This document shows positions 4,833 to 19,573 of a stretch of DNA of 45,262 bases, in pieces. The stretch comes from a virus: positions 1-45,262 of IMG/VR virus record IMGVR_UViG_3300031673_000114. The stretch is one strand, 5' to 3'. Positions within the stretch are counted from its first letter, which is position 1; the number at the start of each line of letters is the position of its first letter. Both the position numbers and the translations under genes were made by a program. The notes below the pieces were generated by a model that had not been told where the DNA came from, did no database searches, and was given only the letters and a program-made list of their open reading frames with translations.

Positions 4833-5024
4833 ATGTCAAAGCAACCACAAAACGAGCGACCACGAACGCTTATTGCATACAACGATAAGGGAATATATGC
4901 AAGTTGGTGTATGTCCCCGTATACTACCCTGTCTGTACTTCAGGCTTATTGTAGGCGGCATAATCTACAATGGATTGTGGTCAGTTTACCTACACTGGAG
5001 GAGATTAATGCAAATAAGACTTAA
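4833..5024 (+). CDS. Hypothetical protein (63 aa)
   Basis: ATG 4833 lies 5 nt after AAGGAG. The track start at 4779 would lie inside the terminator hairpin. Confidence 0.6.
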   Translation: MSKQPQNERPRTLIAYNDKGIYASWCMSPYTTLSVLQAYCRRHNLQWIVVSLPTLEEINANKT

Positions 5025-5230
5025 TACAGAGCGTTTTTGTATGAAACCCGACCGCTATTGGCATAAAGTGGTCGATGTCCCATACCAATCCGCCGAAATG
5101 AAATTTCACTATTTCCATCAGGGAATGATTACCATCTACATCTATGGTATTACAAGATATTATCATTTAAGGGCTGTTTTCCTCGTTTTTGTATTTAATC
5201 CAATCAATTTTCACAAAAAAGGAGCTAATC

Positions 5231-5644
5231 ATGCCACTTCTTGACATGGGCATTACCTACGATAAGGGAATATACAGGGTTAGTATCCAGACCGCTCCCA
5301 TTATCGAAAACTTCTTCAAAAGTACAAGTATAAAAACCTCGGTATGGGGTGTCTCGTACTATACCCTCGAAAAGAGTCAATCCTCTCGCAAAATTATAGT
5401 AGAGGGAGTTGCCGAAATTAATGGAGAGCGATTTTCCGTCGAGCGTGTACTCTATTTAAACCGTTTCGGATTTGAATTTCATCCCGAAAATGTCTCTGCG
5501 CTTCGCAGTGTGGGAATTTCGGATGGGATTATTCTTCAATGCTCTTCATCCGCTCTCTATTCAAGGGCACTCCTTAACCAATTCTGCCAGAATATGGCAG
5601 AGGCATGTAGTGTTATTAAGCATCTAAGCAGGAGAGCGTCATGA
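5231..5644 (+). CDS. Hypothetical protein, first gene of the amidoligase cassette
   Basis: RBS cacaaaaaaggagctaatcATG. The stop overlaps the amidoligase start (ATGA at 5641-5644). No recognisable motif. Confidence 0.7.
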   Translation: MPLLDMGITYDKGIYRVSIQTAPIIENFFKSTSIKTSVWGVSYYTLEKSQSSRKIIVEGVAEINGERFSVERVLYLNRFGFEFHPENVSALRSVGISDGIILQCSSSALYSRALLNQFCQNMAEACSVIKHLSRRAS

Positions 5645-6354
5645 AACTACAAGTAATAACCGCATTCGCTCCCGAAATAGAGGGGGGATGGAATCTTGAG
5701 GCAATGGATCCCCAAGATGTGGATGGCAGAACAGTTTACGAGGAATGGCGCATTAAACCCGATGGGTCGGTAACCACATCTCACGGACAACCACGAGAGG
5801 CCGTTCCTCTATTGCCATTTCACACATTAAAACGTTTTGAAGAGGCATGGAAAGAGGTTAAACCCTATTTTCTGAGTGTTGATTCCTCCTGCGGCCTTCA
5901 CATCCATTGTAGTTTCAAAACACCAGACGGATATCGTGTCTGGAGTGATCCCAAAATGTTCGAGTTGCTCCATGAACACGATAAGGAAATTACAGGAGAT
6001 GCCTATCCACAACTTGTTGAGCGGCTAATAGACCACCCCACTACTTATGCAAAACCACTGAACGAGGCCGAAAAGCGCCATTTAAAGGAGATTGCAGAGC
6101 GGGGGATACCAGTAGACCTTGACCGAAATCGCGAGGTCAACTGGAATGCTTTTCGTAAATACGGAAGTATCGAGTTTCGCTATCTTCCGGGAGTTCCCGC
6201 AGGTTTGGTGTATCCCGTAGTCTCGAAATTTATAAAGGTGGTCGATGCGCTTACATTGGAAAACCTGCAGCAAAACGGCATTGATATCAGTCCGATCAAA
6301 TTAACCATTAAAGACATCGAAGAATTAGAGGAGATAAAACTATGTGTCGAGTAA
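5641..6354 (+). CDS. Putative amidoligase (glutamine-synthetase/GCS2-like fold, Amidoligase_2-type)
   Basis: Motifs read in the translation: APEIEGGW (ExE strand), CGLHIHCSF (HxH), GSIEFRYLPG (EFR). As I recall it, this pattern defines the Pfam Amidoligase_2 family. The adjacent Ntn amidotransferase-like gene is the family's typical neighbour. Confidence 0.65.
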   Translation: MKLQVITAFAPEIEGGWNLEAMDPQDVDGRTVYEEWRIKPDGSVTTSHGQPREAVPLLPFHTLKRFEEAWKEVKPYFLSVDSSCGLHIHCSFKTPDGYRVWSDPKMFELLHEHDKEITGDAYPQLVERLIDHPTTYAKPLNEAEKRHLKEIAERGIPVDLDRNREVNWNAFRKYGSIEFRYLPGVPAGLVYPVVSKFIKVVDALTLENLQQNGIDISPIKLTIKDIEELEEIKLCVE

Positions 6355-7148
6355 CGGCCCTGTTTGGTACAAGCAACGAGAAGGTGACAAAGGAACAATG
6401 TGCCAAACAGCTTCTAATGAACGGAATGAAGCATAATCAAGATGGCTATTTCATTAAGGCGGGAGCGGCCTCTTTGCGTACACTTGATAAAGCACAGTAC
6501 GTCAGGTATTTCAACAAAAAACAAAGCGTAATCGCTTCTGCCCCAATGGTATTCATGCACCAGAGAACAAGCACCAATAAGGTATCGCAGGAATTTGTGC
6601 ATGGATGGAAACTGGAACAATACTATTGTGCCCATAATGGCGTCGGTTCACACATCCCCTCAATAGCGACGGGTAACGATTCCCTCGACTTATTCAGTGG
6701 CATTGATACCGATTCTGCTGATGCCGTGAAAGCGGCTTATGTTCGCGATGGCGATGGAACGTATTTTATGCTGGATGAGGAGGGCAGCGGCTATATCTTC
6801 GGGGAAACCATCTATGTTGCGGTTCCTGATGCCAATCATGAATTATGGGCATTTTCTTCAAAAGAGGACGTGTTTAATAATAAGTACGAGTACTTTACCG
6901 AGAAATTAGTAAAGGCAATCGGAGTAATTAACATCGTAGAAAAGGAGAACCAAAAACTCTCGTTTCCTACATGGACGGCCGTCGAACTTAGAGATACCTT
7001 ACTGGTCTTAAAGACTGGCGTCCCCATTCGTGAGGAACGACTGCCTCAAGTGACAGCCTATTCCACTCTTTATAACGTTCATGCGGGATACACCGAATAT
7101 GCCGAACGGAGTATTGTAAGACAAAACACGATATATGACGGTGAATAA
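6342..7148 (+). CDS. Class-II (Ntn) glutamine amidotransferase-like protein or thiol peptidase
   Basis: The N-terminus MCRVTALFG has the Cys2 nucleophile exposed after Met removal. Also MHQRTSTNKVSQEFVHGW (HxRxxT...N.H) and CAHNGVGSH (HNG). It overlaps the amidoligase by 13 nt. Confidence 0.65.
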   Translation: MCRVTALFGTSNEKVTKEQCAKQLLMNGMKHNQDGYFIKAGAASLRTLDKAQYVRYFNKKQSVIASAPMVFMHQRTSTNKVSQEFVHGWKLEQYYCAHNGVGSHIPSIATGNDSLDLFSGIDTDSADAVKAAYVRDGDGTYFMLDEEGSGYIFGETIYVAVPDANHELWAFSSKEDVFNNKYEYFTEKLVKAIGVINIVEKENQKLSFPTWTAVELRDTLLVLKTGVPIREERLPQVTAYSTLYNVHAGYTEYAERSIVRQNTIYDGE

Positions 7149-7159
7149 GTCAATAGTAC

Positions 7160-7186
7160 ATCGGGGAATCGAAAGATTCTCCCGAT
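7160..7186 (+). other. Stable GNRA-capped hairpin closing the amidoligase cassette
   Basis: atcggggaatc-GAAA-gattctcccgat gives 11 bp with one bulge. No U-tract follows, so it is not a canonical terminator. Confidence 0.5.
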
Positions 7187-7225
7187 ATAAAGCGTTCTTA
7201 CTGCTAAAATATTTAAGGAGACATT

Positions 7226-8152
7226 ATGTATGTAGAAACAGTTCAGGACTTTCTGGACACTCAAATCCCTCTCGTGGAACTCGACATCAACGCCAAGATA
7301 ACGATGGGAACAAGCGAGGAGGTAGAATATAGACGGGCTTCTATGGCGGGAGACTGTCCCCGTAAACTGGCATTTTTTAAAATCAATGCACCACGCCCCG
7401 TGATGGCAACACGGGGTTCGGCAGTACTTGCAACGGGTTCGTGGATGCACTGGCTTATTATGGAATGGGCACGACGAGGTTATACCTTAAAGGAGCGCCT
7501 GTTTACAATGGTAACGGAAATCGAGGGCGATTTAAGCCAAAAATGTGTCCTGCCATCGGGATATGAACTTAAATCGGTGCATCCCGATCTTCTTGTTAAT
7601 CATCAACAACTCGGTAGGGGGGTTGGCGAGATTAAAACCCTTTCAAACTATGGCTTTCTTGAAATGGTAAATGGCGAAGTAGAATACCGATATCGCGTAC
7701 AGGCCGCAATCAACATGTATGCCTCCAACTCTTCCCATGTATTCTTTTGGCCATATCGGAAGGAGACCTCTAATATCCGTGAAAGAATCTTCTTCGACGG
7801 CGTTCCAGGGTCGGTTAGTAGCTCTTATTACTCTAAAAACGTATCTTTTCTAAACGACGAGCAAAACGTTGCTATTGATGTGGCTAAAATTATTACCGAT
7901 GTCGATAACCTATATCAGGCCATTGACGAAATTACCACCATAGAACAGGTCTTACACGCTTTCCCGGAAGCCTCTAATCCGTTTATATGTACCAACACAA
8001 GATCAAACTGTCGCAAATGCGGAGGAACGGGACAGGTAATTAAACCAGAACTAAAGTTTCCCTGTTCTTACTGTCCATTTATGAATCTGTGTTGGAGGGT
8101 TTCCGAAATGAAAATTGACGAGGGAAGTCCTCATTATTATGTCTCGCGTTGA
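7226..8152 (+). CDS. Cas4/RecB-family PD-(D/E)XK exonuclease with Fe-S cluster cysteines
   Basis: HPDLLV...GEIKT gives the D...ExK motif and YRVQAAINMY gives QxxxY. The N-terminal Cys (GDCPRKL) plus C-terminal CSYCPFMNLC (C-x2-C-x5-C) match the Cas4/AddB four-Cys arrangement. RBS taaggagacattATG. Confidence 0.75.
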   Translation: MYVETVQDFLDTQIPLVELDINAKITMGTSEEVEYRRASMAGDCPRKLAFFKINAPRPVMATRGSAVLATGSWMHWLIMEWARRGYTLKERLFTMVTEIEGDLSQKCVLPSGYELKSVHPDLLVNHQQLGRGVGEIKTLSNYGFLEMVNGEVEYRYRVQAAINMYASNSSHVFFWPYRKETSNIRERIFFDGVPGSVSSSYYSKNVSFLNDEQNVAIDVAKIITDVDNLYQAIDEITTIEQVLHAFPEASNPFICTNTRSNCRKCGGTGQVIKPELKFPCSYCPFMNLCWRVSEMKIDEGSPHYYVSR

Positions 8153-18220: not shown

Positions 18221-19573
18221 TTACGTTGTGGGACTCAGTACTTGTTGGACAAGGGGTTGTCCCATCCTTTCAAGGGTTGCCCTCCCAATATCCTTTCGAT
18301 AAAATCCCTTTGAACTTGGAATAATCCGTTCTAATATTCGCAGTGCCTTGGTATTTGCTAAGGATATATCCTTATCTTTTCCCGTAATTGTTAGGGCATA
18401 TCCGAATGAAGAGGCTATTCCAATCTGATTAGTGTAATCCCCAAGAGTCATCTTCTTAACTTCCGAGTAATGCACATGTTTCATATCCTCGGGGGTTAAT
18501 CGGGAAAAATCTATAATCTCGTTATAGAAAGACTCCTTAACGTTGTTGACGGTTTCATAGGGAAACGTCGGAAAGGCAAGCGTCAGGACGATACCCTTGT
18601 TGTCTGTATCGAACATATATCCATCGGTATATCCGGTCGCCAAACGGGACATAAAGGAGCCAAAGGGGACATTGAGAAGTTCTAAATATAGATCACTTAT
18701 AGGATATCCGAAGCGTAGGGTGTGTTCTAAGAGATAAATACCATTCGTATTTACAATACAATTAGCATCTACACATCCAACATAGCGGGTTTTTGCAAGA
18801 ATAGGGGTCAGAGGATGAACCATTTCAAGAAACATCCTGTTCAGTCCAAGCTGGAAGTACATCCCTGTTCCCATTTCACCTGTGCTCAGACCGTGCCCAC
18901 CATCCAAAAGCGCCTTATTCTCGAAGTTGATTTCTGTTAGAATCTGGCCATCCTGTCTAATCCAATCGGCCCCATTAAACCATCCCGCTATGGCTACCTC
19001 GTATCCCTCGATGTAATCTTGCACCACAATCTGACCATCCAAGGAATGTTGATACTTGCCTTTAATAGTCAAGAGATGCTTAATTAAATCTTCAGAATCA
19101 TCACGAGAAGCCTTCCAATTTAATGTTTTGGGAAGATTGTCCGTCTGCTTCACAATGTATTTGCGAGGACGCCCCTTGATGTACTTAATGGTGTCATCAA
19201 TAGATTTAACCTCGATAGAAGTTGGTACTCGAATACCAAGTTTCTTGGCAAGTTGAGTTCCCCAGATACGGTCTTTTTCTAATCTATCTCCCACCTCGTT
19301 AGAACCCACCACGCGATAACCGTTCTTACGCATTGCGCTTTGCAACGTTCCAAACTCCGATCCATCAAATATAAAGATGGCATCAATGTTACGCTTGATG
19401 AAATCTTTAAGGGGAGTCGAACTTGCATAGAATCGCTTAATATTTGGAAAGCCAGTCAGTACCTCGTTGAAGTACCTGTCCTTATTCCAAACATAGACGG
19501 TATTGCCCTCTTCTTCAAGTCGGTAGGCAAACCCCGCACATTCCATTGAACCGGAAATAATACAGAATTTCAT
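18221..19573 (-). CDS. PurD-like (glycinamide ribonucleotide synthetase family) ATP-grasp ligase
   Basis: Colinear by eye with E. coli PurD:
- MKFCIISGSMECAGFAYRL vs MKVLVIGNGGREHALAWK;
- GSNEVGDRLEKDRIWGTQLAKKLGIRVP vs GPTAGAAQLEGSKAFTKDFLARHKIP;
- VVQDYIEGYEVAI vs VIEEFLDGEEASF;
- STGEMGTG vs NTGGMGAY;
- LLEHTLRFGYP vs VIEFNCRFGDP;
- C-terminal FYRKDIG vs FCRKDIG. Confidence 0.75.
   Translation of the reverse strand: MKFCIISGSMECAGFAYRLEEEGNTVYVWNKDRYFNEVLTGFPNIKRFYASSTPLKDFIKRNIDAIFIFDGSEFGTLQSAMRKNGYRVVGSNEVGDRLEKDRIWGTQLAKKLGIRVPTSIEVKSIDDTIKYIKGRPRKYIVKQTDNLPKTLNWKASRDDSEDLIKHLLTIKGKYQHSLDGQIVVQDYIEGYEVAIAGWFNGADWIRQDGQILTEINFENKALLDGGHGLSTGEMGTGMYFQLGLNRMFLEMVHPLTPILAKTRYVGCVDANCIVNTNGIYLLEHTLRFGYPISDLYLELLNVPFGSFMSRLATGYTDGYMFDTDNKGIVLTLAFPTFPYETVNNVKESFYNEIIDFSRLTPEDMKHVHYSEVKKMTLGDYTNQIGIASSFGYALTITGKDKDISLANTKALRILERIIPSSKGFYRKDIGRATLERMGQPLVQQVLSPTT

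Follow-up and report, generated by a model that had tools for sequence, protein, structure and literature searches.

We analysed a 45,262-nt stretch of viral DNA (IMG/VR record IMGVR_UViG_3300031673_000114, positions 1 to 45,262; hereafter the window), which approximates a whole phage genome and for which an identical 45,276-bp contig is present in ENA. Our subject is a cassette of three overlapping genes, ORF1 to ORF3, that encodes a small protein, a predicted Amidoligase_2-type ligase and an enzyme with a predicted class-II glutamine amidotransferase (GAT) fold. We find that this cassette belongs to a known phage module of unsolved function, of which it is a divergent and minimal representative. 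The pair of amidoligase and GAT has already been described; the new element is the conserved small partner family to which ORF1 belongs. The features at the locus are:

5231..5644, + strand: ORF1, 137 aa (public gene callers also give 137 aa)
5641..6354, + strand: ORF2, 237 aa, predicted Amidoligase_2-type ligase (Pfam, PHROG, tblastn, motifs)
6342..7148, + strand: ORF3, 268 aa, predicted class-II N-terminal nucleophile (Ntn) GAT-fold enzyme (HMMER family, profile, AlphaFold2 model)
7160..7186, + strand: GAAA-capped hairpin of 11 pairs with one bulged base, 12 nt past the ORF3 stop codon
5025..5230, + strand: upstream spacer of 206 bp that contains a ribosome-binding site (RBS) and possibly part of a 78-aa open reading frame

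The three genes are tightly packed. ORF1 and ORF2 overlap by 4 nt (ATGA, 5641-5644) and ORF2 and ORF3 by 13 nt (6342-6354), exactly as claimed in a first-pass annotation of this DNA. Each gene is preceded by a Shine-Dalgarno sequence, for instance AAGGAG at 5218-5223, 7 nt upstream of ORF1, and together the products total only 642 residues.

Several comparisons point to the nature of the middle gene. ORF2 scores 20.2 bits (E=6e-4) against Pfam PF12224 (Amidoligase_2), for which the gathering cut-off is 22, and matches phrog_2443 ('amidoligase') at 2.6e-6. By tblastn it recovers annotated amidoligases of Arthrobacter, Bacillus and Ralstonia phages (best 8e-8). A protein 91% identical to ORF2 (P0002) carries a precomputed PF12224 match, and the ORF2 homologues of two sister cassettes, L004 and L101, reach 35.8 and 40.3 bits against the same family. 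In an alignment of ORF2 with six divergent phage amidoligases (A6), residues E12, E14, D41, S43, C84, G85, H87, H89, R162, R164, N167, E178 and R180 are invariant, and ORF2 carries the complete motif set (E12-x-E14, D41-G-S43, C84-G-x-H87-x-H89, R162-x-R164..N167 and E178-F-R180). The ExE, HxH and EFR motifs from which the first-pass annotation had recognised a ligase of this type are thus all among the invariant positions, and PHROG, tblastn and motifs concur with its assignment, with Pfam falling just under its cut-off. At 237 aa, ORF2 is among the shortest amidoligases that we found (others are 229 to 439 aa). Sequence searches against solved structures detected no PDB relative, and membership of the family is what suggests a glutamine synthetase (GS)-like fold. 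We conclude that ORF2 is a minimal and divergent member of the group, predicted to be an ATP-dependent carboxylate-amine ligase of the Amidoligase_2 type.

The product of the last gene is more divergent from annotated families. ORF3 matches nothing in Pfam, PHROG or NCBIfam, and tblastn against phages was also negative. Word-indexed protein searches returned near-identical relatives only, and their profile version added three distant members that were already in the HMMER set; a full HMMER search over 1.84 billion representatives yielded 73 homologues. Across 39 of these homologues there is no variation at M1, N32, G35, H73, R75, H87, N99, G100 or D113, and at least 90% have Cys2. The signatures noted at first pass, namely the Met-Cys start, H73-x-R75 and H98-N99-G100, are thus shared by the family. 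ORF3 relatives share a near-invariant Met-Cys start together with HxR, HNG and NDS motifs, and the Met-Cys start falls at or within the first six residues in 26 of 27 family open reading frames, the exception being archaeal (L173). The top three PDB matches of the ORF3-family profile are 3mdn, PurF and the glutaminase domain of GlmS, all aligned at HxRxxT and HNG. In the profile alignments R75 and N99-G100 of ORF3 align with R73 and N98-G99 of GlmS, and D113 aligns with the Asp of the PurF 'SDT'. In GlmS and PurF, the Arg and Asp hold the alpha-carboxylate and alpha-amino groups of glutamine and Asn-Gly forms the oxyanion hole. We take R75 and D113 to be the corresponding ligands of a glutamine alpha-carboxylate and alpha-amino group, and N99-G100 to be the oxyanion hole.

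Structure prediction points to the same class. An AlphaFold2 model of ORF3, built from a five-sequence alignment, has a predicted local distance difference test score (pLDDT) of 55.7 and a predicted TM-score (pTM) of 0.62. When this model was searched with Foldseek, a check suggested in the first-pass annotation, all 50 hits listed were class-II GATases with E < 1e-3, at target-normalised TM-scores of 0.61 or less; EgtC was the first match among them (E=7e-6). Several ORF3 relatives also match Pfam GATase_4 weakly. EgtC is a stand-alone gamma-glutamyl-amide hydrolase, and 3mdn a stand-alone GAT protein. ORF3 itself is a stand-alone protein of 268 aa, with no second or synthase domain in the Pfam scan or the AlphaFold2 model. 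Given that no synthase domain is coupled to it and that its only link of this kind is adjacency to ORF2, we file it as a GAT-fold enzyme and not as a proven amidotransferase. The profile and Foldseek matches, together with the conservation of Cys2, uphold the earlier reading of the last gene, and we assign ORF3 to a divergent subfamily of predicted stand-alone class-II (Cys-Ntn) GAT-fold enzymes outside Pfam coverage.

ORF1 was the most difficult of the three proteins to place. It has no match in Pfam, PHROG, NCBIfam or PADLOC and none by tblastn against phages; direct searches gave near-identical copies only, and locus searches with ORF1 alone or with alignment A7 gave no further relatives. 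Homologues were nevertheless found in three other viral lineages (L101, L206/L207 and L201), always in the order ORF1-like gene, amidoligase, GAT. The first of these came from a genome scan. L101, which holds the nearest syntenic counterpart of the entire cassette, is a 49.6-kb contig (GTDB CAZRHO010000001.1) binned with a Methanosarcinales metagenome-assembled genome (MAG), and may be a mis-binned virus contig or an archaeal virus. Within its first 8 kb, the part that we examined, a 157-aa ORF1-like protein (25% identical over 126 residues, blastp E=3e-7) is followed by a 229-aa amidoligase (E=7e-13) and then a 298-aa GAT (E=1e-21), a gene order kept at 25-29% protein identity. L206/L207 and L201 emerged from a search with a motif based on the loop shared by ORF1 and its L101 homologue. 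The ORF1-like gene of L201 is flanked by the genes for a phiEco32-type COOH-NH2 ligase and for the amidoligase; in LUZ24 this place is taken by gp17, a protein of an unrelated family (phrog_4877). The four ORF1 lineages are mutually related at 5e-15 to 2e-6. Their alignment (A8) has twelve invariant residues (E26, E62, G80, N87, L91, R92, V94, G95, I96, S97, G99 and L115), many of them in an invariant loop, N-x-S-x-L-R-x-V-G-I-S-[D/E]-G, and most members also have a K-V-S-P-E-I-E-x-x-F-K-like stretch. None of the family members has a library match. From these comparisons ORF1 appears to be the founding member of an unannotated small-protein family encoded directly upstream of the amidoligase and GAT. 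To the question raised at first pass, whether the 137-aa partner is conserved, the answer is divided: it is present in matching order in three other, distant lineages, whereas many cassettes carry unrelated small proteins in its place. By sequence, then, ORF1 is a conserved third member of the module in one subgroup only.

Attempts to connect ORF1 to known families or folds were unproductive. A single-sequence AlphaFold2 model (pLDDT 39) was unusable, and a fold search with it returned no hit at E < 0.1. A gamma-glutamyl cyclotransferase of the GGACT/AIG2 type was considered and rejected, as there was no Pfam hit and hhalign against phage GGACT gave E values of 0.65-0.78. The best PDB match of the A8 profile is Enterococcus faecalis ribosomal protein S6, nearly full length at a marginal HMMER E=0.04. 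It is notable only since genes of the RimK-like type (the S6 glutamate ligase family) occur in sister modules, and the lead was not confirmed by hhalign against an S6 alignment of four sequences, two of them entered by hand (E 0.24-0.27). An N..LR region of ORF1 aligns with the small proteins of L004 and L005, but at a level (hhalign E=0.021, probability 2%) that does not establish homology. No relationship was detected between ORF1 and the small proteins of the L020 and L057 groups, LUZ24 gp17 or Shrooms gp95.

The association between the two enzymes is much broader than that with ORF1. We recovered ORF3-family members with their flanks by means of degenerate DNA motifs (the HGW...HNG block), the ORF1-loop motif and exact-protein look-ups. 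An Amidoligase_2-like gene lies within 2.5 kb on the same strand for 23 of the 27 ORF3-family genes found in this way, although the order of the two genes varies between lineages. For three of the four remaining genes the contig is cut off on the side that holds the amidoligase in close relatives, leaving a fragment of an archaeal MAG as the sole true exception. The co-occurrence on which the earlier interpretation depended is therefore well borne out. The pair is also present in the phages Shrooms, Ottawa and LUZ24, and one viral contig has two amidoligase-GAT pairs in tandem (L068, 2265-6118). At least two ORF3-family members were among the 120 matches listed in the genome scan, a count that fits a mainly viral distribution of the family.

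What accompanies the pair differs from lineage to lineage. The L004 and L005 cassettes have a common small-protein family and the L020 group another. In a third set (L057, L064, L066, L070, L075 and L077; the L057 group), a protein of ~130 aa is encoded between amidoligase and GAT (for example, L077 4553-4948); its N-terminal KEQKKEP repeats vary in number, and its C-terminal domain is under purifying selection, with ratios of non-synonymous to synonymous substitution (dN/dS) of 0.13-0.21. Enzymes of glutamyl-peptide chemistry recur in the sister modules. The modules of Arthrobacter phage Shrooms and Bacillus phage PBC5 include a gene for GGACT or gamma-glutamyl cyclotransferase (GGCT), that of L005 one for a RimK-like glutamate ligase, and that of LUZ24 both types. 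In PBC5, where the GGCT-like gene follows the amidoligase at a distance of ~0.8 kb, the 6.5 kb that we examined contain no annotated GAT.

Modules of this kind were reportedly predicted by comparative genomics in 2009 (Iyer et al.), in a paper whose title is said to name peptide modifications of proteins. The Pfam description of PF12224 likewise is said to record the pairing of amidoligase and GAT, traced to that same work, and ORF2 and ORF3 do represent this pair of families, as the first-pass annotation had noted. In LUZ24-like phages the module comprises a COOH-NH2 ligase, gp17, the amidoligase, the GAT, a RimK-like ATP-grasp protein and GGCT. OM43 phages have the pair, whose function their authors describe as still to be explored, and a phage from a deep-sea Planctomycetes culture has it together with an annotated glutathione synthase and GGCT, for which only speculative metabolic roles were given. 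Our search of the literature found no substrate or phenotype reported for amidoligase and GAT modules. The window cassette resembles the known ones (LUZ24-like gp16-gp22, OM43, Shrooms and Ottawa) in that the same two families are adjacent on the strand of the replication genes in a tailed phage. It differs in that its proteins are shorter and more divergent (237 aa against 300-420 aa for the ligase, 268 aa against 307-510 aa for the GAT), that ORF3 is missed by Pfam, that there is no gene for a COOH-NH2 ligase, RimK-type ATP-grasp or GGCT, and that ORF1 is from a different family than LUZ24 gp17.

Comparison with better understood systems is informative about the possible chemistry. As is predicted for the cassette, EgtA/EgtC of ergothioneine biosynthesis and PuuA/PuuD combine an ATP-dependent ligase of the GS/GCS fold with a GAT-like hydrolase that removes a gamma-glutamyl group. 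Unlike the window proteins, they work with intervening pathway enzymes and outside a phage context, no sequence relationship is detectable beyond fold, and PuuD is a class-I GAT, not class II. ORF3 shares with GlmS, PurF and AsnB the Cys1 nucleophile, the Arg, Asn-Gly and Asp residues and, in its model, the alpha-beta-beta-alpha Ntn fold; it differs from them in being a stand-alone protein of 268 aa with no fused synthase domain and in having N-x-D-G in place of RGxD. GatCAB and MurT/GatD are comparable to the cassette in gene content (a small protein, a glutaminase and an ATP-dependent enzyme that activates a carboxylate), but the folds of all components are unrelated and the likeness is one of analogy only. 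The NAD+ reconstitution pathway NARP3 was considered as a further comparison and set aside as irrelevant; it uses PnuC and NadR.

Based on these data, we propose that ORF1 to ORF3, translated together, act as one functional module for the making and breaking of a glutamine-like (gamma-glutamyl-type) amide bond, a reading by analogy to which we assign a probability of roughly 40%. That the proteins form a single module is supported by their overlapping frames with good RBSs, the invariant motifs of ORF2, the 23/27 adjacency and the syntenic order kept across lineages. From this layout, the family and fold assignments, the conserved residues and the synteny we infer which reaction is carried out, in which direction its steps run, what the substrate is and how the phage benefits. 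ORF2 would spend ATP on turning a carboxylate into an acyl-phosphate, which is then coupled to an amine; if GS, GCS2 and PuuA are a guide, the most plausible carboxylate would be the gamma-carboxyl of glutamate. Removal of Met1 would mature ORF3 and expose Cys2 as its N-terminal nucleophile. Arg75 and Asp113 would then grip the alpha-carboxylate and alpha-amino groups of a glutamine-like moiety while its gamma-amide is cleaved with the help of the Asn99-Gly100 oxyanion hole. The logic of the pair would be that of PuuA/PuuD and EgtA/EgtC, in which an amine first receives a gamma-glutamyl handle that is taken off again at a later stage. ORF1 may serve as a dedicated partner, either an acceptor or carrier or a specificity subunit, with the G-I-S-[D/E]-G loop as its candidate functional site. 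We favor gamma-glutamylation because the nearest relatives of ORF3 (EgtC, 3mdn and GATase_4) are stand-alone hydrolases, because sister modules add glutamyl-peptide enzymes (GGCT and RimK-like ligases), and because the precedents for a GS-fold ligase with a GAT-like protein work in this way. To our knowledge, every precedent in which the two are encoded together is a gamma-glutamyl ligase/hydrolase (PuuA/PuuD and EgtA/EgtC).

A number of points count against this proposal. A writer and an eraser of one bond that are translationally coupled look futile unless an intermediate step lies between them, and we identified no step between bond making and bond cutting. The fold of ORF2 is predicted from family membership only, with a Pfam score 1.8 bits under the curated cut-off, and the ORF3 model is only of moderate confidence at its pLDDT of 55.7. 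R75 and D113 of ORF3 would suit free glutamine equally, as an amidotransferase requires. The part given to ORF1 is conjecture, and many cassettes have unrelated small proteins in place of ORF1. Finally, we know of no member of either enzyme family with an established substrate or activity.

The main rival takes up the point about free glutamine. Here the cassette would encode a heteromeric glutamine-dependent amidating enzyme, in which ORF3 acts as a glutaminase that passes ammonia to ORF2, and ORF2 turns an ATP-activated carboxylate into a carboxamide, as AsnB, MurT/GatD and GatCAB do; ORF1 would be either a small subunit with a scaffold role like that of GatC or the substrate that carries the carboxylate. 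Such a complex accounts no less well for the tight coupling and for the retention of the glutaminase residues, given that strict adjacency and translational coupling are typical of fixed-ratio subunits and that ORF3 keeps all true class-II glutaminase residues, including the predicted alpha-amino and alpha-carboxylate ligands. Ammonia is moreover the natural nucleophile of GS-fold ligases, and the three-gene layout (a small protein, an activator that uses ATP, and a glutaminase) resembles that of gatCAB. We nevertheless regard an amidating complex as rather unlikely. The nearest relatives of ORF3 are the stand-alone hydrolases named above and not channel-forming amidotransferases, the GGCT and RimK-like genes of sister modules would be left without explanation, and an invariant N..LR.VGIS[DE]G loop would be unexpected in a scaffold. 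Nor do we know of a precedent for a GS-fold ligase supplied by a GAT subunit.

A second group of explanations places the modification on a protein or on DNA. ORF1, a host protein, the envelope and a nucleotide were the candidate targets put forward at first pass. In a tagging system, the acceptor might be a side chain or terminus, either in ORF1 or in a host protein, to which ORF2 ligates a peptide or a single amino acid. ORF3 would act as a thiol peptidase and mature the tag or take it off, on the pattern of Pup/PafA/Dop, LysW/LysX and RimK-S6. A passage in a later summary of Iyer 2009 (PMC10580990) presents the phage amidoligase and GATase as proposed to modify the cell wall and block superinfection, which would suit tagging. 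So would the conserved, co-translated ORF1 with its glycine-flanked invariant loop, whose acidic residue recalls carrier-protein modification sites, and the RimK/LysX-like ATP-grasps of L005 and LUZ24. The marginal full-length match of the ORF1 profile to S6 (E=0.04) leans the same way, but profile-profile comparison does not support the likeness. Tagging becomes improbable when one considers that ORF3 keeps predicted ligands for a free alpha-amino and a free alpha-carboxylate group, which an internal residue does not offer, that ORF1 has no Glu/Gln-rich or acidic C-terminus, and that other lineages have unrelated small proteins. More improbable still is a specific version in which the ORF1 family is a dedicated carrier or substrate, modified by the amidoligase at the G-I-S-[D/E]-G loop, and the Ntn enzyme matures or releases the adduct. 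If true, this would be protein-tethered phage amide chemistry like that of LysW/LysX, Pup and RimK-S6, possibly with S6 mimicry, and a new kind of phage post-translational system. Decoration of DNA, in which a hypermodified base is glutamylated or amidated and so evades restriction, is suggested by the report of amidoligase and amidotransferase genes near thymidine-hypermodification genes in some viral contigs (PMC8989533). In scans that covered most of the open reading frames of the window, however, no dUMP hydroxymethylase, 5-HMUDK, aGPT-Pplase, TET/JBP or DpdA-type gene was found; a Dam-type methylase is the only DNA-modification gene recognised among the scanned proteins, and no related cassette that we examined carries hypermodification genes. 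Given that no thymidine-hypermodification genes were recognised in the window, a DNA-base target is the less likely, and we consider it very improbable indeed.

The first-pass annotation had further described the cassette as a self-contained, early unit set off by a 200-bp gap and closed by a hairpin. The hairpin is real, with its GAAA loop and 11 pairs interrupted by one bulge; the region 7149-7225 folds at -19.1 kcal/mol (z = -2.8), and positions 7160-7186 are 100% conserved in L007, one of two 98%-identical contigs. That it closes the unit does not follow, as it has no U tract and was not reported by a terminator scan; its role could lie in termination, in RNA processing or in stabilising the mRNA. 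A spacer of 206 bp does exist upstream but may be partly coding: a public gene call on the identical ENA contig places a 78-aa open reading frame at 5008-5244 (+ strand), with a GGAG RBS and a 14-nt overlap with the start of ORF1. The sole promoter-like match that a scan of the spacer returned (5135-5163) is no better than chance, and the spacer has no significant RNA structure (z = -1.8). With no U-tract terminator, no above-chance promoter and a gap that is possibly coding, the terms 'self-contained' and 'early' are not borne out and are best kept as plausible descriptions.

The cassette also stands out in a comparison with close relatives. Relative to the two 98%-identical contigs (L007 and L006), substitutions are concentrated in the cassette, where 50.8 of 56 are non-synonymous and dN/dS values are 1.5, 5.5 and 3.3. 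The 191 nt 5' of the cassette are identical in these relatives and the downstream exonuclease gene is nearly identical. The independent L057 lineage, unlike the window cassette, shows ordinary purifying selection.

In its wider context, the cassette lies among replication-type genes on the + strand (~1 to 18 kb), which include tRNA-Met, a Cas4/RecE-like exonuclease, DnaB, RusA and the Dam methylase. The virion module, including TerL, portal and major head protein, occupies the - strand from ~44 to 18 kb. The portal is only 22-24% identical to known podovirus portals, a nucleotide search of the cassette region (5000-7400) against INPHARED found no match, and on such comparisons the phage lineage appears to be new. 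Three other features of the window are relevant here:

1261-1334, + strand: tRNA-Met (CAT), near the left end of the early region
7226-8152, + strand: Cas4/RecE-like exonuclease with a C-terminal CxxC cluster, directly 3' of the hairpin
18221-19573, - strand: PurD-like ATP-grasp protein of the glycinamide ribonucleotide (GAR) synthetase type, 450 aa, the final gene of the late operon

The exonuclease gene has an equivalent position in the close relatives L006 and L007. We considered the PurD-like ATP-grasp as a fourth component of the module and rejected it: its closest phage homologue, 25% identical, is at the matching position at the end of the late operon in MW202796, a phage in which the amidoligase/GAT cassette is absent. 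Nor is it related to the RimK-like protein of L005.

Modules of this type are annotated in many phages, among them LUZ24-like Pseudomonas phages, marine OM43 phages and actinophages. The window cassette is the smallest version that we found, with no accessory ATP-grasp or cyclotransferase inside it, and this small size together with a conserved third component makes the question of what such modules do experimentally tractable. If a host metabolite, an envelope precursor or a ribosomal protein turned out to be the target, this would account for an accessory module that is widespread in phages.

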